A stretch of DNA of 64,000 bases from a virus: the UHGV virus genome UHGV-0072281, one strand, 5' to 3'. Shown piece by piece: positions 4,994 through 54,542 of the stretch. How positions within the stretch are numbered: the first letter of the stretch is position 1; every line of letters begins with the position of its first letter. The notes beneath the pieces are model-generated. The model saw only the letters and a list, made by a program, of their open reading frames with translations, was not told where the DNA came from and did no database searches. The position numbers were made by a program, and so were the translations under genes.

Positions 4994-5005
4994 GAGGGAA
5001 GAACT

Positions 5006-5134: not shown

Positions 5135-5166
5135 TTTCATCTTTTTGCGTCTGTAAGGTCTGATAA

Positions 5167-5610: not shown

Positions 5611-5676
5611 AACAATAAAGGCTCTCTTGACGTTCCTCACTATGAGTGTGAGAATTTTACGTCAGGAGAGCTACTT

Positions 5677-14141: not shown

Positions 14142-14143
14142 GA

Positions 14144-16323: not shown

Positions 16324-16330
16324 ATATTAT
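16321..16330 (+). promoter_or_regulatory. recurring motif TAGATATTAT (copy 2)
   Basis: overlaps stop codon of upstream gene, about 30 bp before next ATG. Confidence 0.2.
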
Positions 16331-16360
16331 TCAGGTGTAGAACCCTCGGAGTTAATCACC

Positions 16361-17098: not shown

Positions 17099-17099
17099 C

Positions 17100-19648: not shown

Positions 19649-19658
19649 GAGAATTATA

Positions 19659-20543
19659 ATGTTAAGACGCAGAATTTATGGAGACACGCTTCGACGTATT
19701 AGTGAAGCTATAGAGACTGCACACAAAGACTTGTTTGGTCTGAAAGAAGATCGTTTTCTAACGTTTGTCAGGGAACACAAGAGGCAACTTCCCGTAACCT
19801 TTCTGCCCGTTAACGACCCAACGTACCGTGTGTTCGGCACCACCAAACAGGTGCCGTATTCTATCCGTCAATCGTTAGGTTTGGGCTGGCAATACGCAGG
19901 TATTGAAATTATCTCTGATAACGAGTTGATGGCGTTACTTGCAGACACTGAACGTTTAACGGATATTCCGTACGCGTGGATTGAAGCCATCCCTTCGTTC
20001 ACCTTTTCCGTGACTGTCAAGATTAACGAACTTCCTGCTACACTCTTTATCGGTCGTCGTAAATTCGAAGGTGAAGAAGTATTGTTCGTTTTACGATGGG
20101 TGGAGATAAATCAGCGGCACTGTTGGACAACCAAGATTTATCGGTTCAACAGAAAGGCAGATGACTTTGTTAGTTTAGAGCCTTACTTTGCTAACGAGTC
20201 AAAGGACGAGGAACTTCTGGATGAGGTACATATCGGTTTATATCTTTCCTCGCGGGTGAAGAAATCAGAACGCGAGCGACGGGAATACCGTGGTAGAACG
20301 ACACGTTACGTACCTGATACAGAAATCCTTCCACGCAGAGAACCTGTCGTTGTTGACGTAAGTCCAGTACAACGCGAAGACTTAGAGAAACAACGCAGGG
20401 AAGGCAGGAGAATCTGTTTAACGCCGCATCGCGCAGCACACATACGCAGGGCACATTGGAAACGGGTCTGGTGTGGGCCAATGACAGGCCCACGCTGGCA
20501 GGAGTGGCGATGGATTGCACCCGCCTTTATTTCCGGATTTTAG
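19659..20543 (+). CDS. hypothetical protein, paralog family B
   Basis: C-terminus RAAHIRRAHWKRVWCGP...W.AP.F; start moved to internal ATG 19659 with AGGAG RBS (track start 19536 overlaps upstream gene). Confidence 0.55.
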   Translation: MLRRRIYGDTLRRISEAIETAHKDLFGLKEDRFLTFVREHKRQLPVTFLPVNDPTYRVFGTTKQVPYSIRQSLGLGWQYAGIEIISDNELMALLADTERLTDIPYAWIEAIPSFTFSVTVKINELPATLFIGRRKFEGEEVLFVLRWVEINQRHCWTTKIYRFNRKADDFVSLEPYFANESKDEELLDEVHIGLYLSSRVKKSERERREYRGRTTRYVPDTEILPRREPVVVDVSPVQREDLEKQRREGRRICLTPHRAAHIRRAHWKRVWCGPMTGPRWQEWRWIAPAFISGF

Positions 20544-23307: not shown

Positions 23308-23607
23308 ATGCGTTATCAAACGGAGATTGTGGAGCGCTTAAGCGAAGGTTTAGCCAGCGTCAGTCTGGAAACAGCAGCGGCATTTCGTGAGACTTTCGCT
23401 ACTTTCTTTCCCGATCGTGAATCTTTTTGTTTAAAGGTCGGTGAATATTATTCCAAGTTACTCGAACACTACGGTTACCCGCCGGTGAAATTCGACGTAC
23501 CTGAAAACACCGACGACATCAGTTATTGGATTGAAACCCTCGAAGCAGGGACACTTTCCAACTTGCGTAAGGCGGTAGAAAATGAAACTCGATCCAGCGC
23601 GGCGTAA
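23308..23607 (+). CDS. hypothetical small protein
   Basis: 99-aa ORF with AAGGAG RBS. Confidence 0.5.
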   Translation: MRYQTEIVERLSEGLASVSLETAAAFRETFATFFPDRESFCLKVGEYYSKLLEHYGYPPVKFDVPENTDDISYWIETLEAGTLSNLRKAVENETRSSAA

Positions 23608-24250
23608 AAAAGCAGAAGCTTACGCCTTACAAATCTTAAACCTGGTTGACCCCTCTGGGATTAACGCAGAGGCAGCAAAGAAAGCTTTTGCTCGAATGAC
23701 AGACGAACAGTTTAATCGTCTTCGTGAAGGGCTACCGATTTACAACCCGGTTGGCAGTAAAGTTAAAATAGACCACATGCGAAACGTTGAGCTATGTCGC
23801 GTTTTAGGTCTGAACCTGGAACAGCGGTTGTGGTTAACTGAGCCGAAAACGGGTGTTTTCCATCGTACCCGCTACCCACATCTGGTATTGCGCTTGCCTG
23901 CGCGTCGACAAACGCAGATGCAAGAAAAGAAAATGGCAGTAGCGAAGAACGACAAAGTTCGTGATAAACTCTCCGGTCAGGTTGTGGGTCCTTCTAAAGC
24001 ATCAGGTGTATCTTTCCCAGAAGCGTACATCATGTACTCGGATGGCCACGACTGGACACTGAAAGAGTTTCTGTGGGCGCGTGGGGGTAACGAAGCGTTA
24101 CAACGTGCGTTCTATCAATCGTTACGTCAAACCGGTAAGGGACGTATTGACCTACCAGGGGCAGAACGTACCAGTTCAAAAGCAACACGTACCTGGTCTG
24201 CGTATCTGAAAGCGATGCACATTGGTAACAACATAGGCCATCCGTCATGA
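23582..24250 (+). CDS. hypothetical protein
   Basis: 222-aa ORF, overlaps upstream by 26 nt. Confidence 0.45.
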   Translation: MKLDPARRKKAEAYALQILNLVDPSGINAEAAKKAFARMTDEQFNRLREGLPIYNPVGSKVKIDHMRNVELCRVLGLNLEQRLWLTEPKTGVFHRTRYPHLVLRLPARRQTQMQEKKMAVAKNDKVRDKLSGQVVGPSKASGVSFPEAYIMYSDGHDWTLKEFLWARGGNEALQRAFYQSLRQTGKGRIDLPGAERTSSKATRTWSAYLKAMHIGNNIGHPS

Positions 24251-38204: not shown

Positions 38205-41200
38205 TTAACCCGCACGTCTAACGTTAAGCTGTCGTGCTGGCTGTTCAACGGACATTTGTCGTGATGCTGAGCCTGCTGGTGCCATAGGTTGGGTCGATAC
38301 GGTGTTTTGTACCGGCTGCGGACGTTGTTTAAGAATCGTGACAATCTCTCTGAGATACCCCGCCGATTCTTTCGCAACAGCCAACTGCTGGACACTAATC
38401 GGATCACCGCTACTGAGTGTAGGCCCGTTTTGTGCATCAGAAGTAACCGCAGGTGCCGGTTTACTCGTTGCTGCTACGCGCTGCACAGCGCCTTCTTTCA
38501 CCTTCTCGACATCTTCTTCAGGCAACCCTTCGTTTCTAGCTCCAGCCGCAACGGTCTCCGCAATCGTAGAGGCGTCGCCGCCAGCACTACTACCGCCAGG
38601 TGACGGTACTGCCGGACCACCACTGGTTGCAGCTTTGACATTGTCTGCACCCATCGCACCTTTCTCTGCTAACGCATCGTCACGACGCGCAGCATTCGAT
38701 GCGGGCAAGTTATCCGTCGCTCCAGAAATTGATGGATCGTTAGCTGCTCCTGCTGCTACCGCTGGAGAGGAGGCAACCGCAGGCGTTAGCCCTTTCACCA
38801 TGTCTTTCGTTGAAGCTGGGTTAGCCGCAATTTCGTTTGTCGCCACAGCACCCATACGGCGGTTCAGTTCATTAATAACTTCGCCAACAGTACGAATACG
38901 AACAATCTGTTCGCCTCGCATTTCGTAGAAGACTCCCTTATTACCTCTAAGGATTTGAGGAGTAATACCTTCTGCTTTGTCGGCTGGCATGTTCGGATTC
39001 TGCCGCCATGCATTAAGGAACTTCTTACCACCGCCTGGACCCAAGAAGTGATACAGATACGCAACAGCCGGGGGCGGTTCTACACCACCCAGGTCTTTCT
39101 GCGCCTGCATGATATTATCACGAATAAACTGTACCCCGAGGATGGTATTTGCCCACGGGTCATACTGGTTTACTTGCGGAATACCGTACCGACGAGAATA
39201 CCCCTTCATCATTCCAGACCACGTACTGTCGATGAACTGGAACAACCCTGCTGCTGACGCACCTGGGTTCTTGACGCCGTATCTGAAACCAGATTCAGCT
39301 TTCGCCATCGCAATCGCAATCGCAGGCGGAACACCTAAGGTATTTGCGACATCTGCAATCATTGCTTTAACGCCTTCTACGTTAGGTGTCTTACCACTAC
39401 CCAGTTTACTGATTGGATATTTCTCAGCCAAGGTTTTGTAATCACCTTCTTTGACGTCCCCGAGTTTAATCCCGGATTGGCCCGTAGAGAACTTCGCGTA
39501 ATTGCTGATCCCCATCTCACCCACAACTTGAGATAAGTCACCCGGTGTACCGTAAGACGACCCACCGTTTGGCAAGTACCCATCGTTAGACGCTGTACCC
39601 CAATCAACGACACCTTTAAAGCGTTCTTTGCCATCTTCGTCGGTTTGGTACATTCTCGTCGCACGATCGGCTTTCTGCCACTTCGCACGTTTACCTGCTG
39701 CGGGAGTAGAGCGCAGGGTGTTACGAACAGCCAGGTCAGGTTCTTTTGACAGTTCTTTCAGGTTGGCAAGTTCAGTAGCAACAGAACCTGCATCAGTGTT
39801 TGCTTCCTCGCCTAGCGGGTTGAATGGAATCTCCCACACGGACTGTCGAATACCGCCCTTCATGTTGTAAGCGCCACGAATCATCAACGCCAATTCGTAC
39901 ATGAACCCACCGGATACTTTCAATTCGGTAGGGTCTGCTTGCGGAATGTAACGTTTCAGACCAACGACGTAGGTCATATACGCCGGTAAGAAACGGTTGT
40001 AGAACCAGTTCTTACAACGCTCCTCTTTAGGACCACCTATCAAGTCAGGCGAGATAACCGCAATGGCTTCTTTCCAGTTGCCTTTATAGGTACAGTTCTT
40101 CACATCAATGTCTTTCAACACGTTCTTCTCTAACAACGTGAAAAGATTACGCGTTGTTTGGTTGATAGTAACCGCACCGTAGGTTTTCCACCTGACCGAT
40201 TCCAGGTCTTCCAAATCGCTTTTCTTCGGTAATGAATGCCAGTCAACTTGGATTTGAACCTGCTCAGTCCCGTCTTCCCATCCTTCAACCTTCGCAACTT
40301 TCTCGTTACGTTCAGCATCCGCATTCGCCAATACCTGACTGGTTTCAGCAACGGACGCAATTTTGTGGCCTTCGACAGCGTCACGCATACCTGAACGTTG
40401 TTTCCGTTTGTCGTCAGTACGCATGTTGATTGACCGCCACACACGTTCCTGTGCTTCGACAACCTCTTCCCCTGACAAGAACTCTGCCGGAGTAAAGGTA
40501 ACGAAATCCCACGCTTTAGAGAACCAACCCTGGTTAACTTTACGCGGGTCAGTCAACGAACGGAATTCCGCAGAATCTTTACCCATCTTCATTTTGTTGT
40601 AGAGGGTAATCATATCCGCTTTCGACACTTTCTTCGGATCACCAACATCTGCCAAAGCGATATCGTTATCCATAGACTTCAGTGCTGAAATCCAACGGAG
40701 GTAAATCGGTGCGAAACGTTGTAACATAAACGCAGTAAATGCTAACATCTCACCACGTTCTTCCAAGTTTACACCAAACCCTTCTGCGAGTTTCTTCACG
40801 TCTTCGGAAGACAAGCCACGTAATTGTGCTTCACCCCCTTCGGTATACGAGACGTAAGGTTTCAAAGCGTCTTCTAAATAACGGGCTTTCATACCGTCTT
40901 CAGAAGACCACTGGTCGTAGTCACGGAAACCGTATTGTGCCAGACGCATATAGTCGAGGTACTGCGCTTTCACACGGGTAGCGCATTTATACGCCCAATA
41001 ACCCAGACCAGCGGCAGTCGCACCGATCACAATTGCAGGCCAACCCACCGCAGCTACCACCGTAGATGCAGCCGAGGCTACCGCAGTCACCGCCGGAACC
41101 GCTAAACGCTGTACGGCAAACTTACCAACATTCCACGCTGCTTTACCGAGGAACCCGGTAGGTTTAAAAATACCCCACTTCGCAACTTTACCCAGTATGG

Positions 41201-44200
41201 AACCCACCGTACCTAAGATACTCACGATTGGTCCTACCAACGGTAGCCCTTTGAGGAAGTCCATCACCCCGCCTTTACGTCCTTTCTGTTCGGCGGATTT
41301 CTTGGCTTTCTCTTCTTCCTTAGAACGTCTACGACGACGGAAGAATTGGAAGTAGTCGCGTTTTTCATCATTGGCTGCCGGTTTGTTACGTTGTCCGAAC
41401 TTACTGAACATCGTACGAATCAAGCCATCAGGCGCACCAGCACGTTCCGCAGAGTCGCGCATGGTGTTAAACCAGGACATTTCCTGGAGGTTAACCATCC
41501 GGTTTAAACGTTCCAGTAATGCTGAACCAACACTTTTCGCTTTCTGCTTACCTTTGTTGATAACGCGTCCTGCGCTATCCGTTGCGGTTTCGAAATCCTC
41601 TTTCGCTGCGTTAATCACGCGTGTTGGAGAAACCTTACCACGGGCGTATAAGTGTTGACGGTAAAACTCAGCAACGTCATCGTCACGGCCTGCTAAACGA
41701 GACTCCGTCCGATAGCGAGTACCGATATCGTAGCGTGGATCGCGGAAGCTATCTACCGTTTCGCCAAAGCGTCCACGGAAACGGTCAAACCAGCCTTTAC
41801 CCGCAGCACCCCAACGAGACAGTCTATCACCAACTCCCTGACGGAAACGTGAGAATCGGTCACGTTGTCTGCCTCGCCAATCCCGGAAATTCTGGAAATA
41901 GTCTTTAAACCCGTCGCGGAAATCCTTAACGCGGTTAAGCATCCCTTTGATAGATTTCGACCCAACGTTTTTCTCCAGTTGCTCCGTCCAGGATTCATCT
42001 TCAGGCTCACCATCTAAACGACGGTTAAGGAGTTTATAGATGCGAATCAGGATATGGTTGGTCTTACGGCCATTCGACCAGGAGAACATGCTGAAACCGC
42101 CGCCAGAACCCCCATCCTTACGATTCTGCCACCACCGGGTAAGCGGGTTGTCGGTCGCTAACTCTTTGAATTTCTCAAAGCCACGTTTTGCATTGTTCCA
42201 CAAACGAGCGGGCATTCCCGTTACACGGGAAATCATGCTTTGTAAACGTGTTTTCTCACTGCCTTCAGGAATCTCGTTAAGCCACTCACGTGCTTTCTCG
42301 AAGATAGACGCTGCTCTTGGTGAGATTAGACCAATAAGTTTCTTCGGTAAGTTAACGGCTTTGTTTACCGCTGTACCTGCTTTACCGGAGATATACTGGA
42401 ACAGGGCCTGGAGTTTACCGCCTTTATAGAAGCGCAGTTTACCCGCAGCCGCTAAGTCCGCCGCTGCGAGAATCAAGTTCCCGGCTTCGTCAACAATATC
42501 ACGACCCAGCTTAATGTCGTCTAACGAGCTGAGTTGTACCAGCTTGTTGGTTTTAGGGTCAGCCTGATAATACTCACCTGCCTCTAAACGGCTTCCTTGT
42601 AAAACAACATTGCCTTTCTCGTCGTAGATGTCTCGAACACCAAGAACGCCTTTCCCGAACGCTACTGCTGAATTCCAGCCTGTGGACAGCGTACCAGTAA
42701 CTAAACCTTTCAGTCGTTCAAAAACACCTGGACCGTCAGAAGACCCACCGGAGAATTTCCCACGGATAAAACTGCCCAGTGACTGTAAACGCCCTTTCCC
42801 TCTCAGGAACATGTTCTTCGCAAAACGACCAGCGCCCGTACCGGTGTCCCAAAGTACACCCGCCCAACGACGGAACAGCCCACTTTCACCAAGCACAATG
42901 CGCTTACGTTTGCGTTTGTTACCGGTACTACCCGCGTCTTCAGATGCGTCACCCTCACCGTCACGACCACCACCTAAGCTTGCCAACAGAATACCTTCTT
43001 CATCCATGTTCTTGACATGTTTCAGAATTTCCTGCACGGTGTTGGATTCGGATTTGTTACGGATAGCATCAACGATTCTATCAAACTGTTGCTCTAAACC
43101 CGCATTAGTGTCAGGCCGTTCGCTTAACAGTTCAACAAAGTTGGTGGATTTTTCACCGTAGAGGACAGCAGCAAGTTGTCGTGCTGACAGCCCACGGCCA
43201 CCACGTCCACCTTTACCTTTAACGGTGTCAATAGTCGACTCGTCACCGGTTACGGAAGCGTCTACACCCAAACGACGTAAGTAGTCACCTAGCGCAGAAC
43301 CGTTTTTCAGTTTGCGCTGGATTTCTTGCTCACGGGTTAACGAACGACCAGAGCGAGTTTTCCCCATGGCCAGGTCGTTGTATAGCGTATACGGATCGTT
43401 AATGTCTTTATCTACATCAAACCGATCGTTCTTCGCATCGTACTTAAAGATACCTGCGTCACGTAACGCATTCTCGCCGTAGATAATTGAGGCTTCGTCT
43501 ACCGTGTTTTGACGTGCACGAATTGTTGACTGAATAGCTGAAATCTTACCAGCAATCTCGTTGCTCAGTTCGTGATGACCGCCTGCCAGTTCTGAAGACC
43601 GTGCTTCTAAGACCGCCTGAATCGCTTCTACCGCGTTCGCATTCATGTAACGATACATGTGCATCGGGTCTTTCAGCAGACTGCCTACGTCGAATGCCTT
43701 ACCTTCAGACGCACGGGATTCGATATAGTCCGCCAGCGCCTGGCGAGTTTTCGAATCCAGAGTTTTGTCTTTGTCGATAAAGTCAACGGTTTCGTTAATG
43801 TACTGCTGTAAACGTTTACGCTGTTCGTCATTAGCAACTGCCTTACGTACGCGATTGCCAATAACTTTACGATCCACCATACCTCGCGTGGTCAGGTCAT
43901 AAACCTGATCGTGGTGTTCGCCATATCCACGACGAATAGATTTGTTAATCTCCGTCAGCAAGGTCGGGATGACTTCCGTGATGCTAAGATATGCTTTACG
44001 GTCGAACTTCGCTGCTGCTGATAACGCCTCTGCTGAACGTTCTTCTAAAGCTAATCCCTCACGACGCAGCGGTGTCACTAACCCCATCTCGTGCATTAAA
44101 CGGAAGACAGTGGCCAATGGACCATCTATCTCACCAGCAATCGCTGAGTTAGAGATAGAAGATAAGTTACCGAACCCGTAGCGTGCCAACTGAAGCCGTT

Positions 44201-45338
44201 TCATGACTTCTGGGTTCTTTTCTAACTCACTGCGTGTCCAGTTCTGTAAACGTTCTACTTGCGGTTGTAAGAATCGTTTTGCTAACCAACCACCGGCAAA
44301 CCCTACGACTTTACCTCGGCTATTCGTACGACGACGTTCTGGCGACAGTGAAGAACTGTCTTCCATGTCGAAGTCGTCTTCCTGACCCATTGACAGAACT
44401 TGTTCTAATAGCCCACGTCCGTCACTGAAGATATTCGAAATCTTTTTCTTCGCGTTCTCACGGATTTGTTCAACGAACGAATCTGCGTAACGTAAGGGGT
44501 TCATCCATTCGGCAGCTTTACGTTTTACGTTAGCCCAACGAATTTCAGAGAATTCCTCTTTTGCATAATCCGGCAACGCGGTGTTTTTAACAATCGCTTC
44601 AAGTGCCGGAGTGTTACGGCTAAACTCGTCCTGTTTAAGTTTAGCAATATCTTGCAACGCGAATAACGTACGGTATTGCAGCTCTAGCTGTTTACGCTGA
44701 ACGTTAAGCATCACCCCACGACTTAAACTGGTCGTCAGGTTAACGTCTTTCGCAATACCGATAACCGTCTGGAACAGCGCATCGGACTTCATGTCCTTGA
44801 TGGTGTCACGAAGACGGTCTTCTACCATCCCTTCCTGAACTTCACGTTGCTGTTCAGGTGTTTGTGGGGTACCCGCAAAAACAGTGTCTAACTCACGATC
44901 CATTAATGCCTGTTTAGGATCGTAATTCCCGTAATCGTACTGGTCGCTTTTCGCCCATTTATCGATCTTACGGGTTACACTGTCAGGCAAATACCGTTTT
45001 AGGGTTGGGCCTAATTGACGAGCTTGTGCCTTCACCACGCGGGAGGTCTTTTCAATCTCGTCTTTCGTATGGGCCAGAATGTCTTGACCTGCGGCTTTGA
45101 CGTTCTTATAACCTTCATAAGCGTCAGACGCCGGTTTTGGCATTCCTTTTAAAATGACCTGATCACGTTTATTTTCGGGCCAGATAGTCGACAATGCCGA
45201 CTTACGGGCAGCACGAAATGTGTCCATGACCGGGTTACGCGATTGGTCTTGTTGACGAGGGGGCTCATCAAAATCGTCCCAGTCGTCCATGTTATCAAGA
45301 TCGATTTCATCGAAATCGTCTTTACCTTTTTTAGCCAT
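38205..45338 (-). CDS. giant virion-type protein (2377 aa) with lytic transglycosylase (SLT) domain, TM segments and low-complexity regions
   Basis: SLT motif AKAESGFRYGVKNPGASAAGLFQFIDSTW (about 38900-39330); hydrophobic block LPLVGPIVSILGTVGSILG...AIVIGATAAGLGYWAY (about 40980-41290); acidic N-terminus DDFDEIDLDNMDDWDDFDE; Arg-rich repeats; Ala/Pro/Ser-rich C-terminus. Confidence 0.7.
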   Translation of the reverse strand: MAKKGKDDFDEIDLDNMDDWDDFDEPPRQQDQSRNPVMDTFRAARKSALSTIWPENKRDQVILKGMPKPASDAYEGYKNVKAAGQDILAHTKDEIEKTSRVVKAQARQLGPTLKRYLPDSVTRKIDKWAKSDQYDYGNYDPKQALMDRELDTVFAGTPQTPEQQREVQEGMVEDRLRDTIKDMKSDALFQTVIGIAKDVNLTTSLSRGVMLNVQRKQLELQYRTLFALQDIAKLKQDEFSRNTPALEAIVKNTALPDYAKEEFSEIRWANVKRKAAEWMNPLRYADSFVEQIRENAKKKISNIFSDGRGLLEQVLSMGQEDDFDMEDSSSLSPERRRTNSRGKVVGFAGGWLAKRFLQPQVERLQNWTRSELEKNPEVMKRLQLARYGFGNLSSISNSAIAGEIDGPLATVFRLMHEMGLVTPLRREGLALEERSAEALSAAAKFDRKAYLSITEVIPTLLTEINKSIRRGYGEHHDQVYDLTTRGMVDRKVIGNRVRKAVANDEQRKRLQQYINETVDFIDKDKTLDSKTRQALADYIESRASEGKAFDVGSLLKDPMHMYRYMNANAVEAIQAVLEARSSELAGGHHELSNEIAGKISAIQSTIRARQNTVDEASIIYGENALRDAGIFKYDAKNDRFDVDKDINDPYTLYNDLAMGKTRSGRSLTREQEIQRKLKNGSALGDYLRRLGVDASVTGDESTIDTVKGKGGRGGRGLSARQLAAVLYGEKSTNFVELLSERPDTNAGLEQQFDRIVDAIRNKSESNTVQEILKHVKNMDEEGILLASLGGGRDGEGDASEDAGSTGNKRKRKRIVLGESGLFRRWAGVLWDTGTGAGRFAKNMFLRGKGRLQSLGSFIRGKFSGGSSDGPGVFERLKGLVTGTLSTGWNSAVAFGKGVLGVRDIYDEKGNVVLQGSRLEAGEYYQADPKTNKLVQLSSLDDIKLGRDIVDEAGNLILAAADLAAAGKLRFYKGGKLQALFQYISGKAGTAVNKAVNLPKKLIGLISPRAASIFEKAREWLNEIPEGSEKTRLQSMISRVTGMPARLWNNAKRGFEKFKELATDNPLTRWWQNRKDGGSGGGFSMFSWSNGRKTNHILIRIYKLLNRRLDGEPEDESWTEQLEKNVGSKSIKGMLNRVKDFRDGFKDYFQNFRDWRGRQRDRFSRFRQGVGDRLSRWGAAGKGWFDRFRGRFGETVDSFRDPRYDIGTRYRTESRLAGRDDDVAEFYRQHLYARGKVSPTRVINAAKEDFETATDSAGRVINKGKQKAKSVGSALLERLNRMVNLQEMSWFNTMRDSAERAGAPDGLIRTMFSKFGQRNKPAANDEKRDYFQFFRRRRRSKEEEKAKKSAEQKGRKGGVMDFLKGLPLVGPIVSILGTVGSILGKVAKWGIFKPTGFLGKAAWNVGKFAVQRLAVPAVTAVASAASTVVAAVGWPAIVIGATAAGLGYWAYKCATRVKAQYLDYMRLAQYGFRDYDQWSSEDGMKARYLEDALKPYVSYTEGGEAQLRGLSSEDVKKLAEGFGVNLEERGEMLAFTAFMLQRFAPIYLRWISALKSMDNDIALADVGDPKKVSKADMITLYNKMKMGKDSAEFRSLTDPRKVNQGWFSKAWDFVTFTPAEFLSGEEVVEAQERVWRSINMRTDDKRKQRSGMRDAVEGHKIASVAETSQVLANADAERNEKVAKVEGWEDGTEQVQIQVDWHSLPKKSDLEDLESVRWKTYGAVTINQTTRNLFTLLEKNVLKDIDVKNCTYKGNWKEAIAVISPDLIGGPKEERCKNWFYNRFLPAYMTYVVGLKRYIPQADPTELKVSGGFMYELALMIRGAYNMKGGIRQSVWEIPFNPLGEEANTDAGSVATELANLKELSKEPDLAVRNTLRSTPAAGKRAKWQKADRATRMYQTDEDGKERFKGVVDWGTASNDGYLPNGGSSYGTPGDLSQVVGEMGISNYAKFSTGQSGIKLGDVKEGDYKTLAEKYPISKLGSGKTPNVEGVKAMIADVANTLGVPPAIAIAMAKAESGFRYGVKNPGASAAGLFQFIDSTWSGMMKGYSRRYGIPQVNQYDPWANTILGVQFIRDNIMQAQKDLGGVEPPPAVAYLYHFLGPGGGKKFLNAWRQNPNMPADKAEGITPQILRGNKGVFYEMRGEQIVRIRTVGEVINELNRRMGAVATNEIAANPASTKDMVKGLTPAVASSPAVAAGAANDPSISGATDNLPASNAARRDDALAEKGAMGADNVKAATSGGPAVPSPGGSSAGGDASTIAETVAAGARNEGLPEEDVEKVKEGAVQRVAATSKPAPAVTSDAQNGPTLSSGDPISVQQLAVAKESAGYLREIVTILKQRPQPVQNTVSTQPMAPAGSASRQMSVEQPARQLNVRRAG

Positions 45339-45367
45339 AACGTTTAATCCGTATCAGGAGATTTAGC

Positions 45368-46993
45368 GTGAATAAACTTAATTGGGTTGACTTTTATCTG
45401 CTCAATGTAAACAAGTCTCTTGTGTCGCGATTACGACCCGTCACGACCACAGATACTTTTCAAGGGTTGACAAAAAACTTTCACCCTGAAGGGTTGTACT
45501 CCACGGAGATATTCGGTCTTACGGGAAGTGAAGCCCGAGACTCAATGTTTTCTTACATTGATATTAAATTAGATATCATTTCGCCGACGGTGTGTTTGGC
45601 GTTATTCCAACTAAAACAACTCTACGAAGAAATTTGTTCTGGAAAACGCTACGCAACCTGGAGCGAAAAAGAAAAAGATTTTGAACCGGCTTTGCCTGGC
45701 GACGCTGGCGCAGATACCGGTTTTAACTTTTTCCTTAGTCACTACAACGACTTAAAACCCGGACGTAACGAATCGTTACAACGTGACGAAACGGTGGATT
45801 TCTTCGAGAAGTTCCGTCCCGTGAGTCTTAGCCGCTATGTTCTCGTATTACCCGCGGGTTTACGTGATTTGGTGGTTAGACAAGACGGTAGGGAACAGGA
45901 AGAGGAAATCGGTGGGTTATATCGTCGTTTGATTTCTTTGGCCAGGGCGATTCCTGACCGCGCTACACGGGTTGAATTAACGAACCCTGTACGATGGAAA
46001 CTCCAACAAACCTTTAACGAAATCTGGATGTACTTCTTTAACATCCAGGACGGTAAAGGTGGCTTCCAACGTCGTAAAGTGACGTCGCGTAAACTGATGA
46101 ACGGGACACGTAACGTATTGTCCTCATTCTCCACAGGCTCTAAATGCATGGGGCGTGAGGATGCGATTCGACCGACCGACACCAAAATTGGTTTGTATCA
46201 GGGTCTGAAAGCGTTGCTACCTGTTGCGCAATACCAGATACGTGAACGTTACCTCGGTAACATTCGTGCTGGCGATGGCAACCTTTATGGCGTAAACACC
46301 AAAACGCTTAAACGCGAGTTCTTGGAGGTTGGGGGTCGTGTTTACGACACCTTTACCACAGACGACGGTATCGAAACATTAATTAACCGGATGGAAGCTC
46401 GCGAGCTTCGTCATCAACCGTTAATGATTAACGATACCCATTACGTCGCGCTGGTCTACCAAGACAACAAACATTTTAAGGTGTTCTACGATATCGACGA
46501 ACTGCCTAAAACGTTTGACCGTAAAAACGTCCACGGAATGACCCTGGTAGAATTACTCTACTTATCGGGTTACGAACTGTGGAACAATTATTTCGGTTTC
46601 GTTACACGTTATCCCGTCACCGGTCGAGGCTCGACGTACTCATCGACCATAAGATTGGAGACCACCACGTCATCTTTATACCTAAAAGAACTGGAGGATG
46701 ACTGGGAGACTGAAAAGCCACACGGAGCTATCAGTTATCCTGACAGGACGGTTCCGACCTTTGTCGAGTCGATGGCACCGCACCCGTCACGATTGGGTGG
46801 CTTAGGGGGTGACTACGATGGTGACACCGGTTCACTTAACGCGCCTATGTCGCAAGAAGCACTCGAGGAAAACCGTAACTGGATACACTCGAAGAACTAC
46901 TGGTTCGATTCTGACGGGAATTTCAAAATCAATCCTGTCAACAACGTGATTAAACGTGCGACGCAAGCGTTATTAAAGAATCCAAAAGGCTAA
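45368..46993 (+). CDS. multisubunit RNA polymerase beta-prime-like subunit, N-terminal part (split beta-prime; GTG start)
   Basis: blocks parallel E. coli beta-prime as recalled: HPEGLYSTEIFG (ERDGLFCARIFGP), VLVLPAGLRDLVVRQDGRE..GGLYRRLISL (VLPVLPPDLRP..DLNDLYRRVINR), GKGGFQRRKV (GKQGRFRQNLLGKRV), GGDYDGDTGSLNAPM (NADFDGDQMAVHVPL); zinc-ribbon cysteines absent. Confidence 0.75.
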   Translation: MNKLNWVDFYLLNVNKSLVSRLRPVTTTDTFQGLTKNFHPEGLYSTEIFGLTGSEARDSMFSYIDIKLDIISPTVCLALFQLKQLYEEICSGKRYATWSEKEKDFEPALPGDAGADTGFNFFLSHYNDLKPGRNESLQRDETVDFFEKFRPVSLSRYVLVLPAGLRDLVVRQDGREQEEEIGGLYRRLISLARAIPDRATRVELTNPVRWKLQQTFNEIWMYFFNIQDGKGGFQRRKVTSRKLMNGTRNVLSSFSTGSKCMGREDAIRPTDTKIGLYQGLKALLPVAQYQIRERYLGNIRAGDGNLYGVNTKTLKREFLEVGGRVYDTFTTDDGIETLINRMEARELRHQPLMINDTHYVALVYQDNKHFKVFYDIDELPKTFDRKNVHGMTLVELLYLSGYELWNNYFGFVTRYPVTGRGSTYSSTIRLETTTSSLYLKELEDDWETEKPHGAISYPDRTVPTFVESMAPHPSRLGGLGGDYDGDTGSLNAPMSQEALEENRNWIHSKNYWFDSDGNFKINPVNNVIKRATQALLKNPKG

Positions 46994-46996
46994 TCA

Positions 46997-49900
46997 ATGT
47001 TGCTCATTAAACAGTTTAACCAACGCTTCTCTGTGCGTAAAACAGACGAGTTTGGTAATCCGAGGATTATCCCGCTCGAGAAGCTCCAGATACCACGAGG
47101 CTCTATACTGCACGTCGTGGATCTCGATCAGGTGGTCTTAGCGCCACCTGCTACGCTGGAAATCATCCAGCCGTTGGAAAAACCTGCACAAATTCGCCAC
47201 CACTTTAAACTTCCCGAAGAAGGGATCAGTGGGCATCCACGTAACAAACCTGTGCAGGGGCAAGAACGTGCTATCTTTGCGTACCATCGCGCAAACCGTC
47301 CAATTCGTCGTCTGACTTCAGACGACCTGATTCGTAAAGACTTAAAAGTTCTCCTTATTGAGAACTATACACCGATGTTATCGCACTACTATTATCCAGA
47401 CACTCAACTAGCCTGGTACGATAGACTGCGTAACATCCAGCTGTTAATGACTAACCAGTTCAAATACGACACGCAAGAATACATGCGTCAGAACTACTTC
47501 GTGATTGTGCTGGGGTCAACGTTACCGTCTTTCCAGAAGTTCCAAACGACGTATAACGATCGTGTTAAAAGCAAGATTGAAAAGTTCCAGGACTTTAACC
47601 TGCTGTGGTTATTGGAACTGTTCGCTTGGGCATACGGTAAACAGTCTGATTCTCTGTTTGCAGGAATGGACTTAACGCAACTGTCTCGAATGAACTTCAT
47701 CTTCACCCACAACAGCGGCTTTACGTCGATGAACATGGGTGTCGTGGAGAAGATGCGTAAATCGTCCGGTGGTCGTTTAAGTGACGATCAGATGGCCAGG
47801 ATGTTCTATCGTACGTTAGTGCGTGTAATGACACAAGCACCGTCTAATGCGTACGAAGCTGAATTCCTGACACCGGAAGGTGATGAACGTATCTTTGTTA
47901 AGGACATCGAAGAGGATGCCGTTGACGTCGTTGACGATACAGACGTTGTTAACGACGCTGTGGTTGAATCGGATAACGCTTTCGATGAAAAAGAAGACCT
48001 CGTTATTGAGGAGCCGAAAGAAGACGTTAAGCCGACGACTATCGTTATCGAAAAAACGATTGCTCACGATGACATTATCAAACAGGAAGCGCAGAAACTG
48101 GCTGAGGCGGGCCGCTTAAGCTCCAAAGCGTATCAGTTCCTGTCTGATTCGACCAAACGTTTCGTTCAGTTACCAAACCCGTACAACCCGAAAGAGACTT
48201 ACGGTGAAGCATTAACCATTCACGAAAAAGACATTGCCGTGAAAGCGGAACCGAAGAAAGTCCAGCGACTGGTTACGGATGAAGGTTGGGCAGAAAACGT
48301 TACCGACCAAATGGTGAAACAATACAACCAGACCATGATGAGTAAAGACGTACTGGCAGCAGTCGCCAGTTCTCAACGTCTTGGTTTGGCTATTCACAAC
48401 CACACGATCGAGAAAGAGATTTCCGTTACGGGAACTATCGAACACCACACCCTGCGTGTTCAACCGATTGGCGGTGAACCGACGACGGTACGTTTCTCTA
48501 TCCCTGGCTTAACTGAAGATGGTACCTGGGTAGCGAACGGTGTTGAATACACCATGCGTCGTCAGCGTGTAGACGTTCCGATTCGTAAGGTCGCCCCAGA
48601 CACCGTAGCGTTAACTACCGCTTACGGTAAAAACTTCGTACGTCGTAGTGACAAAGTCGCAAACGACTACGGCCGTTGGTTAACGAACGCGATTATCACG
48701 CGTGCCGTAGACCCGACCAACACGGAGATCACCGACGCACGACTCGCGAACGTTTTCGATCCTACTGAGAAACTTCCTCGTCAGTATACGGAGATTGCAC
48801 GTCGTATCGCCAGCTTTAATGCAGGCGGGTATATGTGGAATTTCGATTATAAAGAAGCGGTTAACTTCTTTAATGACGAACAGCTTACTGACGCAAACAA
48901 CGTTGAGATGTTACCGGTTGCGAAACGTCCACGCAGTGAAGTTATTGTGGTGATGGATACCAAGTCCATGCTCTATACCGTTAAGGGTAAAGAGTGTACA
49001 CCGCTGGGCACCATCTCTGAAGTGCTTGGTTTCAGTAGCCAGAAAGCGCCAAGAGAGATGACCGAGCTTTCACTGATGGGCAAATCGCTCTCACTGGGCT
49101 TCATCTTCTCGTTCTATTTAGGTCTGCAAGGGATGCTTAAACATTTCGGCATTCAGTACGAAATCGTCCCCGTTGGCCAACGTGTAGATAAGAGCACGTA
49201 CGATTCTATTATTCGTCTCCAGGACAGTAAGTTCCTGGTAACGTGTGATAACGATCAGCAACGAATGATTCTACACGGTCTGGATAAGTACCTGAAACAC
49301 CTGGTAGCTTATACCGAGTCCGAAGTCGACCGCGAAGACATTTACCTGAACTTAATACGTGATGCAGATGGGCTAACTCCACGCTACATCAACGAGCTGA
49401 AACAAATGCGGGCCGCGTTTGTTGATGACATGCACGCACGTATCCTCAGGAAAATGGGTGAACCGGAAACCTTTATCGGGCTATTGGAACGTTCTAACGA
49501 ACTGTTACAAACCGACCACTCTTTACCGGAGATTAACGGTGATGAGATGATGTTCTTAGGGAACCAACGTATTTCCTACCACATCTACACTGCGATGGTC
49601 AGGGCGATGCGTAACTACAACAACGCACCGAACAGTAACCGTAAGTTCGAACTTACTCAGGACATGATTTGGGGCGCAATTAACTCCGACCCGTCTGTTC
49701 TGTTAGCGCCGGGTGCTAACCCTATCCAGTCGATTAAAGAGAAAGACGTTATCACCATGGGTGGTACGGGTGGCCGTAACCGTAAAACAATGGTTTATCA
49801 CACGCGTGAGTTCCAACCGAGTGACCTGGGTATTGTTTCCGGTAACACGGTGGATAACGGTGATGTAGGTATTACTGCTTTCGCCACTAACAACCCACGT

Positions 49901-51163
49901 TTCGATACCGTTGACGGCACAACCTATAAACGGGATGAAAAGAACCTGAAACCGAGCGATACTCTGTCATTTATAGATGGTCTCGTACCAGATACCCTGA
50001 TGGACGACGCTAAACGTCAAAACTTCGTTGGGATTCAGTTAGGTTCTGCCACCAGTTGTAACGGCGCTACCACTACCCCTTATCGTACCGAACAGGAGAA
50101 ATTTGTCGCTCACCGTACGTCGGTGAAACACGCACGCGTTATTGATAAAGCAGGTAAAATCACCGGTCTGTCTAAAGACCATATCGAAATTACGTACGAA
50201 GATGGAAGTAAAGAAGCCTTTCCTCTAGGGCGCTGGTTCGGCCCCCACGAAGGTACCTTCTATCCGCACACCCTGGTGACTCGCTGGAAAGCCGGTGACA
50301 AACTCCCGGCCGGGGCAGTCATCACTTATAACGAGCAACACTTTGAACCCGATATCTACGACCCTACTCAGGTTTCCTGGAAAAACGGGGTGCTGGCTAC
50401 CGTCGCTTTAATCGAGGCTGAAGAAGTAATCGAAGACTCCAATGCTATTTCTGAACGGTTCGCGAAGAAAATGGTTGGGCAGGTTACTAAGCTGAAAGAA
50501 GTGGTGATTAACAGCAACCAGATGCTCCTGGAAATCGTTAACGAAGGGGAACACGTTGACGTCGACACAATCCTATGCACATTTACTGACGACCTTACGG
50601 GGGATATGAGTACCTTTAGTAAGGAAGCAGCACAAACGTTGCAAAGTTTAAGTTCGTACGCACCTCGTGCTGGGGTTCGTGGTATCGTGGATAAAATCGA
50701 AGTCGTGTATCACGGTGAAACCGAAGACATGACGCCTTCACTGGCAGAACTGGTACGCAAATACGATCGTATTCGTCGTAAAGCAGCGTTGGCTGTTAAT
50801 CGTGGCGATCCGGTATCAGGGAGTGTTAATGGGGATTACCGTGTAGAGGGTGTACCGTTAGCCTTTAACTCGCTTTGTGTTCGATTCTTTATTACGCACG
50901 AAGTTGAAATGGCCGCAGCGGATAAGATGGTTATTGCTAACCAGCTGAAAACCACTGTACAAGAAGTGATGTACGGGGAAAACAAAACAGAAGATGGCGA
51001 CGACATTGACATTTTGTTCGGTCGCGATTCTGTCGACGCACGTATCGTAGGTTCTATCCAACGAATCGGTACCGCAAATGCTGTGGGTGAACAAGCAGGG
51101 ATTCTTATCGGTCGTATTCTCGACGGCGAGTCCGTGCCTGAGTTACCAGCGACGCTTAAATAA
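46997..51163 (+). CDS. large hypothetical protein (1388 aa) co-transcribed with beta-prime-N; possibly another RNAP subunit or virion protein
   Basis: starts 4 nt after beta-prime-N stop; no unambiguous RNAP motif found by eye. Confidence 0.55.
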   Translation: MLLIKQFNQRFSVRKTDEFGNPRIIPLEKLQIPRGSILHVVDLDQVVLAPPATLEIIQPLEKPAQIRHHFKLPEEGISGHPRNKPVQGQERAIFAYHRANRPIRRLTSDDLIRKDLKVLLIENYTPMLSHYYYPDTQLAWYDRLRNIQLLMTNQFKYDTQEYMRQNYFVIVLGSTLPSFQKFQTTYNDRVKSKIEKFQDFNLLWLLELFAWAYGKQSDSLFAGMDLTQLSRMNFIFTHNSGFTSMNMGVVEKMRKSSGGRLSDDQMARMFYRTLVRVMTQAPSNAYEAEFLTPEGDERIFVKDIEEDAVDVVDDTDVVNDAVVESDNAFDEKEDLVIEEPKEDVKPTTIVIEKTIAHDDIIKQEAQKLAEAGRLSSKAYQFLSDSTKRFVQLPNPYNPKETYGEALTIHEKDIAVKAEPKKVQRLVTDEGWAENVTDQMVKQYNQTMMSKDVLAAVASSQRLGLAIHNHTIEKEISVTGTIEHHTLRVQPIGGEPTTVRFSIPGLTEDGTWVANGVEYTMRRQRVDVPIRKVAPDTVALTTAYGKNFVRRSDKVANDYGRWLTNAIITRAVDPTNTEITDARLANVFDPTEKLPRQYTEIARRIASFNAGGYMWNFDYKEAVNFFNDEQLTDANNVEMLPVAKRPRSEVIVVMDTKSMLYTVKGKECTPLGTISEVLGFSSQKAPREMTELSLMGKSLSLGFIFSFYLGLQGMLKHFGIQYEIVPVGQRVDKSTYDSIIRLQDSKFLVTCDNDQQRMILHGLDKYLKHLVAYTESEVDREDIYLNLIRDADGLTPRYINELKQMRAAFVDDMHARILRKMGEPETFIGLLERSNELLQTDHSLPEINGDEMMFLGNQRISYHIYTAMVRAMRNYNNAPNSNRKFELTQDMIWGAINSDPSVLLAPGANPIQSIKEKDVITMGGTGGRNRKTMVYHTREFQPSDLGIVSGNTVDNGDVGITAFATNNPRFDTVDGTTYKRDEKNLKPSDTLSFIDGLVPDTLMDDAKRQNFVGIQLGSATSCNGATTTPYRTEQEKFVAHRTSVKHARVIDKAGKITGLSKDHIEITYEDGSKEAFPLGRWFGPHEGTFYPHTLVTRWKAGDKLPAGAVITYNEQHFEPDIYDPTQVSWKNGVLATVALIEAEEVIEDSNAISERFAKKMVGQVTKLKEVVINSNQMLLEIVNEGEHVDVDTILCTFTDDLTGDMSTFSKEAAQTLQSLSSYAPRAGVRGIVDKIEVVYHGETEDMTPSLAELVRKYDRIRRKAALAVNRGDPVSGSVNGDYRVEGVPLAFNSLCVRFFITHEVEMAAADKMVIANQLKTTVQEVMYGENKTEDGDDIDILFGRDSVDARIVGSIQRIGTANAVGEQAGILIGRILDGESVPELPATLK

Positions 51164-51210: not shown

Positions 51211-51504
51211 ATGTCTATTTTAGATAAAATCAAACAGCGACACGGTATTCCGACTGGGAAAAATATTACCCAGCAAAGCGTGGAGGGCTATAGCCCTATC
51301 CAACGTACTAACTACGTGTCTTTGGGCAACACGGTTGAACTGGCGACCGAAATCGTGCACGGGTTGATTCGTGGCAATTCTGGAATGTCTGACCGTATCG
51401 GCGATCAGAAACTGCTGAAACGCGATATCGCTGACCTGGTGGGAGCTCGTTTGTACACGAAGCTTCAGGATGCCGTCACCACCAATAATGAGGTTAAACA
51501 ATGA
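51211..51504 (+). CDS. hypothetical small protein
   Basis: 97-aa ORF. Confidence 0.45.
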   Translation: MSILDKIKQRHGIPTGKNITQQSVEGYSPIQRTNYVSLGNTVELATEIVHGLIRGNSGMSDRIGDQKLLKRDIADLVGARLYTKLQDAVTTNNEVKQ

Positions 51505-52961
51505 TCAGTTTATACTCGCTGAACGCAGTTACCAACGCCATGAAGCTGTGCAAACAGCACAACATTCAACTCGGCACCGAGGTTGACTCTCCGGTTGATC
51601 TGTTAAACCGTGCGGTAGACCCATCGCGTGTTTTCGATACCACCATTACTGACGAACAGTTCTTCCAGGAACTGCCAGCAATCACTCAGCTGAAACGTCC
51701 GACGGAGGCAACGTCAGAAGCGTCCGTTATCCGTGACGGTGCCATTGAGCCAGAAGCGCTGCGTGTTGACGATCATGAAACTACGCTGTTCGAACTGAAG
51801 AACATGGCAATTCAACGCTGCAACGGGATGCTTGATTTCGCCCGTAACGTGGTACAGCCGTTCGTTCAGTTGGTTATTCAGAACAACGTTATCGACGAAG
51901 TTAAACCGTTGGTAGAAGACTGGAACCTGATTCCGGTGGGTATCGACAGCTGTGTTGATTCTCCAGTTGTCCAGGCACTGGTTCAGGAAATCGCTAACCC
52001 GATGGGTAACGGGACGACTTACGACCCGATTAATTTCGACGTTCCAACCAACATCGAAATCCCAGAAACGGGTGTTAAGGCGTACGACGAATTAGTACGT
52101 AGCCTGCTTAACGATTTGGATATTAGTATTTACGATGCGGCTAAACTGATCCTGGCCGGTAACAACACCGTACCAGTTGCAAGCAACGCACCGATGATTC
52201 TGAAAGAGCGTGTGCTGGTTCTGCTGCTGTCTTCCTACTACATCGAACGTCCTTGGCCTGACTCAGGCGTCGACGCGTTGAAGTGGAAAGCTGAAATGGG
52301 TCGTGCTTACTACACCTCTATCGGCTGGGTTTACGGTTTCGAAAGAGAAATCCTGAACCGTGTCGCGACAGGTAACATCATCTACAGCTACGACACCGAT
52401 AAGAAAGACGTGTATATCTGTCAGGAAACGATGGATGACTACCTGTCTAAAGGTGGTATCGTTGAAGGTCTGCTGGGCGCTATTTATCTGATGGACGAAG
52501 GCGACTATAACGTTTCTGCGCGCGTTCCTGCACTGTTGGAAAACCAGAATACTTACGTCGATGCTTATAACCGTCGTGCGATTATTACGCAGAAGAAAAA
52601 CGAGCAGGACTGGGTAACACGTAACCGTCAGTCACTGAAAACAGCATTCTCTCTGGCTATCGACCAGCTTGACCAGGGATACTTCGATAACGGAGAAGAC
52701 CAGCGTACGCGTGAAGATGTGAAGCGTTGGGTCATGGCAAGTTGCGACACCTTCTTTAGCAATGCTGATGACGACATCACGCTCTTTATTATCCAAACCG
52801 CGTGTAACGACGTGTTCCGCGTATGGGAAATTGGCCCACTGATGCGGACGATTCACCAGGCGATGTTGGATAATCAAGACCCGTCACAAGCAGCAACCAG
52901 TTGGATGATTGACTACGTTCTGGACTGGATTTCAGGTTCTGTGTTTGTTGACAAACTCTAA
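51501..52961 (+). CDS. hypothetical protein (486 aa)
   Basis: ATGA-coupled ORF. Confidence 0.55.
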   Translation: MISLYSLNAVTNAMKLCKQHNIQLGTEVDSPVDLLNRAVDPSRVFDTTITDEQFFQELPAITQLKRPTEATSEASVIRDGAIEPEALRVDDHETTLFELKNMAIQRCNGMLDFARNVVQPFVQLVIQNNVIDEVKPLVEDWNLIPVGIDSCVDSPVVQALVQEIANPMGNGTTYDPINFDVPTNIEIPETGVKAYDELVRSLLNDLDISIYDAAKLILAGNNTVPVASNAPMILKERVLVLLLSSYYIERPWPDSGVDALKWKAEMGRAYYTSIGWVYGFEREILNRVATGNIIYSYDTDKKDVYICQETMDDYLSKGGIVEGLLGAIYLMDEGDYNVSARVPALLENQNTYVDAYNRRAIITQKKNEQDWVTRNRQSLKTAFSLAIDQLDQGYFDNGEDQRTREDVKRWVMASCDTFFSNADDDITLFIIQTACNDVFRVWEIGPLMRTIHQAMLDNQDPSQAATSWMIDYVLDWISGSVFVDKL

Positions 52962-52972: not shown

Positions 52973-53707
52973 GTGATCGTGAGTGCGATTGAAACAGCCC
53001 GTCGTGATCCCACTAAGATTCATGCGGACTTGGTAAATAACGGCACGGTCACCACTACCAAAGGGGGATGTTACATTTACATCCCCGTTGGGTTTGTGGC
53101 GAAAGAGTTGGCGGTTATTTCTTCTACGGTAACGATTGTAGGTATTTTTGCTATCTCAACGGACCGTAAAACTTACGGGGTTTCCAGTGTCACTACACTG
53201 ATTGAGATTACCCCAACGGCGTTTGAAGAGATTGACGTCTTTGGCGTCCCTTATTACGAATTTCGTTTTGACCCCGGCACAGTGGTTTTCCCCAACCGCA
53301 ATTTACAGGTGTTGTCCGCACCGATATACAACATTGCGTCGTATATTTACGACTTTGGTAACCGTCCTTTCTGGTTTACCGCTTACGACGATGCTGAACT
53401 ATTAGCACCGGATAAGGTAAAGCGATGGAACGGTTTTACTGTATTTGCCGATCAGATTACCGCTGACGTTTATGCTGCACACACGCAGCGTAAAGTGGGT
53501 GATCCAAAAACGTTTTTCCGTTATACCTTGAAAAAAGACAGTGACTTAAACAACCCTGTCCAATTCATCCCGCTACGTAGTGGGTCTCTTAACAAAACGT
53601 CGAGACTGGCGAAGCTTGCTGACGTAGAACTGAAACGTGGTATTCGTTCTGCGCTACAAGTTGACCCAGTACGTGCCGAACCGCTCGAAGATTTGTTTAT
53701 GAGGTAA
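52973..53707 (+). CDS. hypothetical protein (GTG start)
   Basis: AGGAGGTG RBS upstream. Confidence 0.5.
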   Translation: MIVSAIETARRDPTKIHADLVNNGTVTTTKGGCYIYIPVGFVAKELAVISSTVTIVGIFAISTDRKTYGVSSVTTLIEITPTAFEEIDVFGVPYYEFRFDPGTVVFPNRNLQVLSAPIYNIASYIYDFGNRPFWFTAYDDAELLAPDKVKRWNGFTVFADQITADVYAAHTQRKVGDPKTFFRYTLKKDSDLNNPVQFIPLRSGSLNKTSRLAKLADVELKRGIRSALQVDPVRAEPLEDLFMR

Positions 53708-53738: not shown

Positions 53739-54542
53739 ATGGACAACTTGACCCTACGTTACAATTGCGTAGCGTTAGCCGGTGTTAATGCTCCAGCCAC
53801 TCTGGAGAAAGACGCGGATGGTTATTACCGCGTATTATTGGGTGCTCTGAATATTTTTAACTCGGAAGGGATTTTCTACGCCTATAACGAGTCTAAGCAC
53901 GTATTCGAGCGCTCTAACATTTTCATGCGTAAAGTAAAAGCCGGTAACCTGTTCGGGGAAGAAGACCACCCTGCACCGCAACCGGGAATGACCGAAGCGC
54001 AGTGGATTGACCGTAACGAATGGATTGAGACGAAAAACGTCTGTATGCACATTCGTGAAGTCGAAGTTATTCCAACCGATCAGACCTGTAACGGTTTGCC
54101 AGTAATGGAAATCTGGGGCTGGATTAAACCGAACCGCGAACGTGGTCCGTATCTGGCAGAAGCGTTAGAGAATCCACATCAAAACGTTTGCTTCTCTCTG
54201 CGTGCTATCGTACGTGAAGGGTATGTTGGTGGGGTGAAAACGCGTCGCCTGGATCGTCTGGTCACCTTCGACTGGGTTATCGAAGATGGGCTTCAGATTT
54301 GCAACAAATACTCCGCAATTCAGCGTGGTAGCAAAGTGGCTCAGGAATCTACCCGTGTACTGCTGGACCGCCGTGTGTCGCTTCAGGCGCTGGAAGACAT
54401 CCTGCGTAACCCAAGCACCACTTCAGCTATCGCAACGGAATCTCGTCGCGGTGAAGTCCGTGCTTTAGCTCAGGAGTATCTGGCAATTGCCAACAAACGC
54501 ACCAACCTGCGGGTTATGGGCTTAGGGAACGGGAAGTGGTAA
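53739..54542 (+). CDS. hypothetical protein
   Basis: 267-aa ORF. Confidence 0.5.
   Translation: MDNLTLRYNCVALAGVNAPATLEKDADGYYRVLLGALNIFNSEGIFYAYNESKHVFERSNIFMRKVKAGNLFGEEDHPAPQPGMTEAQWIDRNEWIETKNVCMHIREVEVIPTDQTCNGLPVMEIWGWIKPNRERGPYLAEALENPHQNVCFSLRAIVREGYVGGVKTRRLDRLVTFDWVIEDGLQICNKYSAIQRGSKVAQESTRVLLDRRVSLQALEDILRNPSTTSAIATESRRGEVRALAQEYLAIANKRTNLRVMGLGNGKW

Follow-up and report, generated by a model that had tools for sequence, protein, structure and literature searches.

The β′ subunits of both jumbo-phage RNA polymerases (RNAPs), the virion enzyme (vRNAP) and the non-virion enzyme (nvRNAP), are known to be split after the catalytic barrel (PMC7598289). In phiKZ, each virion contains ~10 copies of gp180, the N-terminal β′ subunit (β′N) of the virion enzyme, which enter the cell at infection, whereas gp55 of the nvRNAP is not packaged but imported into the phage nucleus (PMC10612078). 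Likewise, mass spectrometry detected SPN3US gp240, which carries the label β′N, both in virions and in tailless heads; the heads of the 241(am11) mutant lack it along with gp42, gp218, gp241 and gp244 (PMC5105663). Furthermore, all five vRNAP subunits of Goslar were detected in virions (bioRxiv 10.64898/2026.04.21.720040). Here, we analysed a stretch of 64,000 nucleotides from the virus genome UHGV-0072281 (64 kb, hereafter the window), in which an open reading frame (ORF) encodes a protein of 541 amino acids (aa). With high confidence, we assign this protein as a β′N of the vRNAP type, which would be packaged, injected and engaged in early gene transcription through Asp-triad catalysis, the last parts of this reading being carried over from its orthologues. 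The gene is:

45368..46993, + strand: β′N gene, 541 aa, GTG start, TAA stop at 46991-46993; orthologue of SPN3US gp240 and phiKZ gp180

An AGGAG Shine-Dalgarno sequence lies 7 nt 5' of the GTG, and the polypeptide ends shortly past the barrel, as expected of a split β′. An earlier note on this DNA, made from the letters alone, had called a 541-aa protein at these positions and placed its stop about 55 residues past the catalytic loop; both calls were accurate, the count between the DYDGD loop and the C-terminus being exactly 55. The note had also proposed a split β′ of a phiKZ-like jumbo-phage RNAP, which was supported by orthology to gp180 and gp240 and by a full-length match to PHROG 2986 (“RNA polymerase beta subunit”; residues 3-536 against profile positions 2-538 of 539, E 7e-235). 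Its further suggestion of a virion-packaged enzyme, drawn from the neighbouring giant transglycosylase gene, no longer depends on adjacency alone, as it is now backed by the match to gp180, by synteny and by the presence of orthologues in virions. The protein is clearly closer to the virion than to the non-virion enzyme, since it shares 32 % identity with phiKZ gp180 (E 4e-76), while phiKZ gp55 was reached by the family profile with an E value of 0.035 and 1.4 % probability, and since it carries an α+β insert of the vRNAP type.

In total, 1175 β′N homologues were retrieved at E <= 1e-3, with lengths of 534-547 aa and the same end point in hundreds of phages and contigs. Together with the invariant loop residues and the Shine-Dalgarno sequence, this number puts the observation well outside chance. 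A tblastn search of 50,697 phage records with the β′N matched 315 of them, all named ones being jumbo phages, with aa identities of 84-86 % for SPN3US-group Salmonella and Escherichia phages, 72-79 % for Asesino/phiEaH2-type Erwinia phages, ~33 % for phiKZ-like Pseudomonas phages, and 22-25 % for AR9-like Bacillus and Staphylococcus phages. As the nearest records by nucleotide (Asesino, phiEaH2, SPN3US) are only 74-76 % identical, the phage itself is not in the 2025 collection that was searched. Identical β′N proteins are encoded on five public contigs, one of them a 107-kb metagenome contig from ENA and three others measuring 0.2-1 Mb (ENA ERZ27239574 is among the five), and a 99 %-identical protein labelled “hypothetical protein” occurs on a 220.6-kb contig of a Salmonella Wangata assembly. 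The source is probably an SPN3US-like jumbo phage associated with Salmonella that has yet to be described.

Homology to β′ was found both by profile and by structure comparison; a lack of such matches would, according to the earlier note, have spoken against its reading. We aligned 44 β′N homologues sharing 38-86 % identity (alignment A1), and the resulting profile matched in the PDB the AR9 nvRNAP β′N (7S00/7S01 chain d, E 4e-13), plastid RpoC1 (E 3e-10), the cyanobacterial γ subunit (E 2.6e-6), and dozens of bacterial β′ chains at ~6e-6, including that of E. coli (E 6.5e-6). Query residues 469-528 thereby align to E. coli 447-507, setting GGDYDGD on NADFDGD (458-464). With filters off, hmmsearch gave three blocks collinear with E. 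coli β′ (query/E. coli 36-53/49-66, 135-253/213-356 and 469-528/447-507); hhalign of the family profile against the single E. coli β′ aligned the middle block alone. An AlphaFold2 model built on the same alignment reached a mean predicted local distance difference test score (pLDDT) of 81.3 and a predicted template modelling score (pTM) of 0.53. Foldseek returned 569 PDB matches for this model at E <= 1e-3, led by the AR9 β′N at 3e-15, and all 50 of the matches listed (of 569) are RNAP entries, nearly all of them β′ or γ chains. The fold-comparison figures for the model were:

AR9 β′N: 17.8
M. tuberculosis β′: 13.3
Vaccinia rpo147: 11.9
human Pol I RPA1: 11.3
phiKZ gp55: 9.2
isolated double-psi β-barrel domains: about 7

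Thus, a β′-type double-psi β-barrel with a DxDGD Mg2+-binding loop is recognizable, and the 541-aa protein is a highly diverged β′ homologue that keeps the IFG, VLP...LYRR and GKxG blocks together with the invariant DxDGD barrel loop. The positions of these blocks and their cellular counterparts are:

45491..45517, + strand: GLYSTEIFG block, residues 42-50; E. coli β′ counterpart GLFCARIFG (54-63 region), hidden Markov model (HMM) alignment of query 36-53 with E. coli 49-66
45845..45928, + strand: VLPAGLR...LYRR block, residues 160-187; aligned to its E. coli β′ counterpart VLPPDLRPL...LNDLYRR
46052..46072, + strand: GKGGFQR block, residues 229-235; E. coli β′ counterpart GKQGRFR, by hhalign and HMM alignments
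46604..46618, + strand: TRYPV, residues 413-417; proposed counterpart of the E. coli β′ NRAPTLH barrel strand
46811..46825, + strand: catalytic Asp-triad loop DYDGD, residues 482-486; aligned to E. coli β′ D460-F-D462-G-D464 in NADFDGD

The earlier note had listed the IFG, VLP...LYRR and Asp-triad blocks in β′ order, and so they stand in the translation, collinear with E. coli β′. Its “GKxGxFR” block fared less well: the segment does align to E. coli GKQGRFR in the profile comparisons, but the literal pattern was wrong, the real GKGGFQR being one residue shorter. We take the VLPAGLR...LYRR block to be the lid region of β′. Within the GKGGFQR block, K230 is invariant in the 44-sequence alignment. 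Invariant are also T413, R414 and P416 of TRYPV, with a strand predicted at 409-415; its equivalence to NRAPTLH is proposed from spacing, without a scored alignment. The catalytic loop reads GGDYDGDTGSL at residues 480-490, with GGDYDGD as a variant of the cellular NADFDGD. D482, D484, G485 and D486 are identical in 44/44 sequences, and by homology the three aspartates should chelate the catalytic Mg2+. In contrast to these, position 483 alternates between F (27/44), Y (12/44) and H (5/44), and the tyrosine is an ordinary family variant; DYDGD also occurs in SPN3US gp240 and in the AR9 nvRNAP β′N.

As the earlier note had stated, the zinc-ribbon cysteines are missing, and this holds for the whole family. 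The only cysteines of the β′N are at 76, 90 and 260, with no CxC/CxxC pair, and the IFG block is followed by ~11 residues (LTGSEARDSMF) versus ~36 in E. coli, where this segment carries C70, C72, C85 and C88. Moreover, 24 of the 44 aligned homologues are free of Cys over their first 120 residues, and none of the alignment columns holds a conserved Cys. Given this and the short segment after IFG, the zinc ribbon is absent throughout the vRNAP β′N family. The rudder also appears to be deleted, as both hhalign and hmmsearch leave a gap at E. coli 308-328, just before GKGGFQR. In the literature, the rudder is missing from phiKZ gp55 and from the AR9 nvRNAP, while the zinc ribbon is kept in gp55 and absent in the AR9 enzyme (de Martín Garrido et al. 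2024, PMC7618050). Iyer et al. (2021, PMC7824862) described a Zn ribbon as retained in the nvRNAP β′ and a longer α+β barrel insert as peculiar to the vRNAP; the lack of a ribbon in the vRNAP is therefore already implied in the literature. Such an insert is present here:

46265..46543, + strand: lineage-specific α+β insert of ~90 residues (~300-392, bounds approximate), in the double-psi barrel region, preceding the active site

Query residues 253-414 span 161 residues versus 69 in E. coli 356-425, and the inserted segment, modelled by AlphaFold2 as a compact unit of strands and helices with pLDDT 92-97, is extra relative to both E. coli β′ and the AR9 nvRNAP β′N. It corresponds to the vRNAP-specific “longer α+β” insert of PMC7824862.

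Several observations weigh against our assignment. In the model, pLDDT falls below 50 at residues 229-246 and over 476-482, the run-up to the loop together with its first Asp, and the pTM is 0.53 as given above. Hence, the position of the loop within the barrel, which the earlier note had made a point on which its reading could fail, is read from the alignments of DYDGD with NADFDGD rather than from model geometry, and the exact geometry is not established. No Pfam family, those of RNA polymerase (RNA_pol_Rpb1) included, matched the 541-aa protein even at E <= 1, and a single-sequence phmmer search against the PDB was marginal, with plastid RpoC1 as its best match (E 0.06). The case for virion presence and activity of this very protein is one of orthology throughout. 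Finally, a β′M (SPN3US gp42 homologue) was not found among 19 further ORFs screened in the window; presumably, it lies outside these 64 kb. The Pfam scan of the neighbouring 1388-aa and 2377-aa proteins gave no RNA-polymerase domain at E <= 1, the only domain being SLT in the 2377-aa protein, and single-sequence phmmer of the 1388-aa βN against the PDB gave no matches, a profile being needed.

An obvious competing assignment is the β′N of the non-virion enzyme. In its favour, the closest solved structure is an nvRNAP subunit, the AR9 β′N, from an enzyme that likewise has neither zinc ribbon nor rudder (PMC7618050). However, the solved RNAP relatives among the PDB matches of the β′N profile and model comprise nvRNAP and cellular β′ chains only, with no vRNAP structure among them, and the sequence scores point the other way, gp180 being matched at E 4e-76 and gp55 at 0.035. 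The gene also sits in the gp181-gp175 head/vRNAP block and not in a region like that of gp55/gp68/gp71-74, it encodes the long insert specific to the vRNAP, and mass spectrometry places its direct orthologue, SPN3US gp240, in the head. Furthermore, gp55 has a CxC...CxxC ribbon (C58, C60, C73 and C76), which is found neither in gp180 nor in the 541-aa protein. On the gp180/gp55 scores and this ribbon difference we rejected an nvRNAP identity, which we regard as very improbable; among the same 19 further ORFs of the window, no nvRNAP subunits were found.

Even less credence is due to two other explanations of the unusual features. One could imagine a catalytically dead or degenerating β′ relic that is kept in the head for a structural role, given that the loop deviates from NADFDGD, that ribbon and rudder are lost, and that Pfam finds no match. 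Nevertheless, the three Asp and the Gly of the loop are invariant in 44 homologues down to 38 % identity, while the deviating second position simply alternates between F, Y and H, and the active AR9 nvRNAP has DYDGD too. The ORF is intact and conserved in >1000 proteins, its partner βN keeps both active-site lysines, and in SPN3US the βN gene (gp241) is essential, with amber mutant heads losing gp240 and other vRNAP subunits, all of which makes a relic extremely improbable. Alternatively, the apparent split might be an artefact, the ORF being the first part of a longer β′ gene into which an intron, a frameshift or an error of sequencing has brought a break. There is precedent for this, since phiKZ genes 180 and 55 are truly interrupted at their DFDGD codons (by segments carrying gp179 and the HNH endonuclease gp56, respectively), and the annotated gp180 stops with “...LGAD”. 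At the locus 45368-46993, however, the frame runs continuously through DYDGD and a further 55 residues, a tail as long as that of phiKZ exon 2, and the βN start follows only 4 nt past the stop with its own ribosome-binding site. Homologues in hundreds of phages and contigs end alike at 534-547 aa, and splitting of β′ past the barrel is documented for the family (PMC7598289). An intron or frameshift artefact was thus rejected for this locus on the continuous frame and the downstream βN start, and we give it almost no weight.

Following the vRNAP assignment, and drawing on orthology to SPN3US gp240 and phiKZ gp180 and on the published experiments, the β′N would be made in middle or late infection and would assemble with βN, βC, β′M and β′C into an enzyme that has no α, ω or σ (PMC7598289). 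This five-subunit complex would be packed into the capsid (~10 copies in phiKZ) and then injected alongside the DNA, where it could transcribe early phage genes without need for the host RNA polymerase, D482/D484/D486 presumably holding the catalytic Mg2+. It is tempting to speculate that the loss of the ribbon, the apparent loss of the rudder and the confidently modelled ~90-residue barrel insert across the vRNAP β′N lineage are an adaptation to the life of a packaged enzyme and not neutral divergence. Such changes might serve assembly without α/ω/σ, storage in the head amid DNA, passage through the tail, or promoter recognition in the early-infection vesicle. We consider this doubtful and put it forward only tentatively; even if correct, it would characterise the known family as a whole and nothing particular to the locus 45368-46993.

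The genomic surroundings match those of the orthologues. Starting with the giant tail lysin and including βN, β′C and the prohead protease, the gene order equals that of phiKZ gp181-gp175 and SPN3US gp239-gp245. The earlier note had proposed a search for the βN, βC and β′C partner ORFs, and within the 64-kb window all three were found. The block, followed by the distant βC gene, reads:

38205..45338, - strand: giant SLT tail protein, 2377 aa; phiKZ gp181 / SPN3US gp239; Pfam SLT E 2e-8, PHROG 3201 E 0
45368-46993, + strand: β′N; phiKZ gp180 / SPN3US gp240
46997..51163, + strand: βN, 1388 aa; phiKZ gp178 / SPN3US gp241; PHROG 3148 E 0
51211-51504: small ORF, 97 aa; phiKZ gp177.1 / SPN3US gp242
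51501-52961: 486-aa protein; phiKZ gp177 / SPN3US gp243
52973..53707, + strand: β′C, 244 aa; phiKZ gp176 / SPN3US gp244; PHROG 2926 E 2e-90
53739..54542, + strand: prohead maturation protease, closing the head/vRNAP block; phiKZ gp175 / SPN3US gp245; PHROG 3014 E 4e-104
23582..24250, + strand: βC, 222 aa; SPN3US gp218; PHROG 3233 E 3e-93

A four-sequence βN profile matches T. thermophilus β at E 3e-8, and the βN motif DKMVIANQLK (nt 50921-50950) carries the second-barrel lysines K1310 and K1318, which are invariant including phiKZ gp178. The match of the βN profile to bacterial β in the PDB begins only at ~residue 500, and the N-terminal ~400 residues (window 46997-48200) contain an acidic low-complexity stretch at ~295-345, “EEDAVDVVDDTDVVNDAVVESDNAFDEKEDLV”. 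The βC protein is 85 % identical to a 222-aa “RNA polymerase beta subunit” of SPN3US, where the βC role was assigned to gp218 (PMC5105663). The β′C shares 30 % identity with phiKZ gp176 (E 1e-33); in SPN3US, the β′C assignment came from a weak HHpred match and from co-loss from the 241(am11) heads (PMC5105663).

The divergent starts of the tail-lysin and β′N genes are 29 bp apart (window 45339-45367), hence any promoters must sit within coding sequence. A scan for σ70-type promoters at 44.5-55.5 kb found 5 sites versus 12.4 ± 3.7 in shuffles and was uninformative; so few σ70-like sites would fit, weakly, a phage transcribed without the host polymerase. Terminators in the same interval were as numerous as expected. 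The region of the tail-protein gene (38205-45338, - strand) has a G+C content of 0.49-0.51, compared with ~0.45 elsewhere, and its GC skew is strongly negative, in agreement with its minus-strand orientation. In the 2377-aa protein, the SLT domain occupies residues 1997-2082, and the C-terminal ~250 residues are of low complexity, rich in Ala, Pro and Ser. Elsewhere in the window, an SbcC-like nuclease subunit (1982-4663), an RNase H-like ribonuclease (14144-15655), a UvsX-like recombinase (21766-23262) and the tail sheath (59952-62009, - strand) are syntenic with SPN3US. The ORFs 18716-19648 and 19536-20543 both match phrog_6160 (function unknown; E 2e-37 and 3e-21) and form a tandem paralogue pair, the second member of which probably starts further downstream, given their 113-nt overlap. 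A tRNA scan of the 64-kb window found none.

Compared with cellular enzymes, the 541-aa protein equals about the first third of E. coli RpoC, from which it differs by the missing zinc ribbon, by the missing rudder (308-328; seen by sequence alignment only), by the absent Pfam RNA_pol_Rpb1 match, and by the extra insert of ~90 residues. The best cellular matches, cyanobacterial γ and plastid RpoC1, resemble it as naturally split N-terminal β′ fragments with the catalytic barrel, although their enzymes have α and ω subunits. The split sites of the phage proteins and of γ/RpoC1 are said to coincide (review PMC7598289). However, plastid RpoC1 (680 aa) continues for ~158 residues past the stretch aligned to query 468-515, whereas the 541-aa protein has only 26 more. 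Extrapolated from this alignment, the phage split would lie roughly 130 residues earlier than that of plastid RpoC1, and the “common split site” described in the review thus holds only approximately.

Among the phage systems, the AR9 β′N (7S00/7S01 chain d) belongs to a non-virion enzyme, has a PDB chain of 448 aa without the long α+β insert, and is 13-16 % identical. PhiKZ gp55 (7OGP chain A) keeps the four-cysteine zinc ribbon, and its sequence similarity is near noise (E 0.035). The annotated gp55 (420 aa; interrupted locus at 3924-6206 of a second phiKZ stretch) ends just short of the published 417-DFDGD-421, and the HNH endonuclease gp56 comes next. In contrast, phiKZ gp180 is collinear with the 541-aa protein from residue 11 to the Asp loop, has no ribbon cysteines either, and lies in the gp181-gp175 block. 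Yet its gene is broken exactly at the DFDGD codons by the gp179 segment, whereas the 541-aa gene is uninterrupted, and it has F where the 541-aa protein has Y. In phiKZ NC_004629.1 (172000-200000 region, ~14100-17259, minus strand), exon 2 of gp180, “FDGDTVSFNAVYSEE...”, is found beyond gp179; located downstream of gp179, it reads “FDGDTVSF...”.

The closest counterpart is SPN3US gp240, with ~86 % aa identity over 99 % of the length (SPN3US-group), the same GTG start, the same DYDGD and the same neighbours, namely the divergent giant SLT tail protein upstream, and βN, two small or unknown genes, β′C and the protease downstream. SPN3US is a separate phage, with a nucleotide identity of ~74-76 % across the region, and no functional difference was seen. 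The labels of the relatives vary from “β subunit” and “α chain” to “RNA polymerase III large subunit”, and the correct label is vRNAP β′ N-terminal subunit. The importance of the locus thus lies mainly in annotation, with four of the five vRNAP genes now placed for an SPN3US-like phage; in addition, the uninterrupted β′N sequence may be convenient for expression and structural work on the still unsolved virion enzyme. Taken together, the β′N described here is an ordinary orthologue of SPN3US gp240 and phiKZ gp180, and hence a member of a characterised, well-described and already known family.

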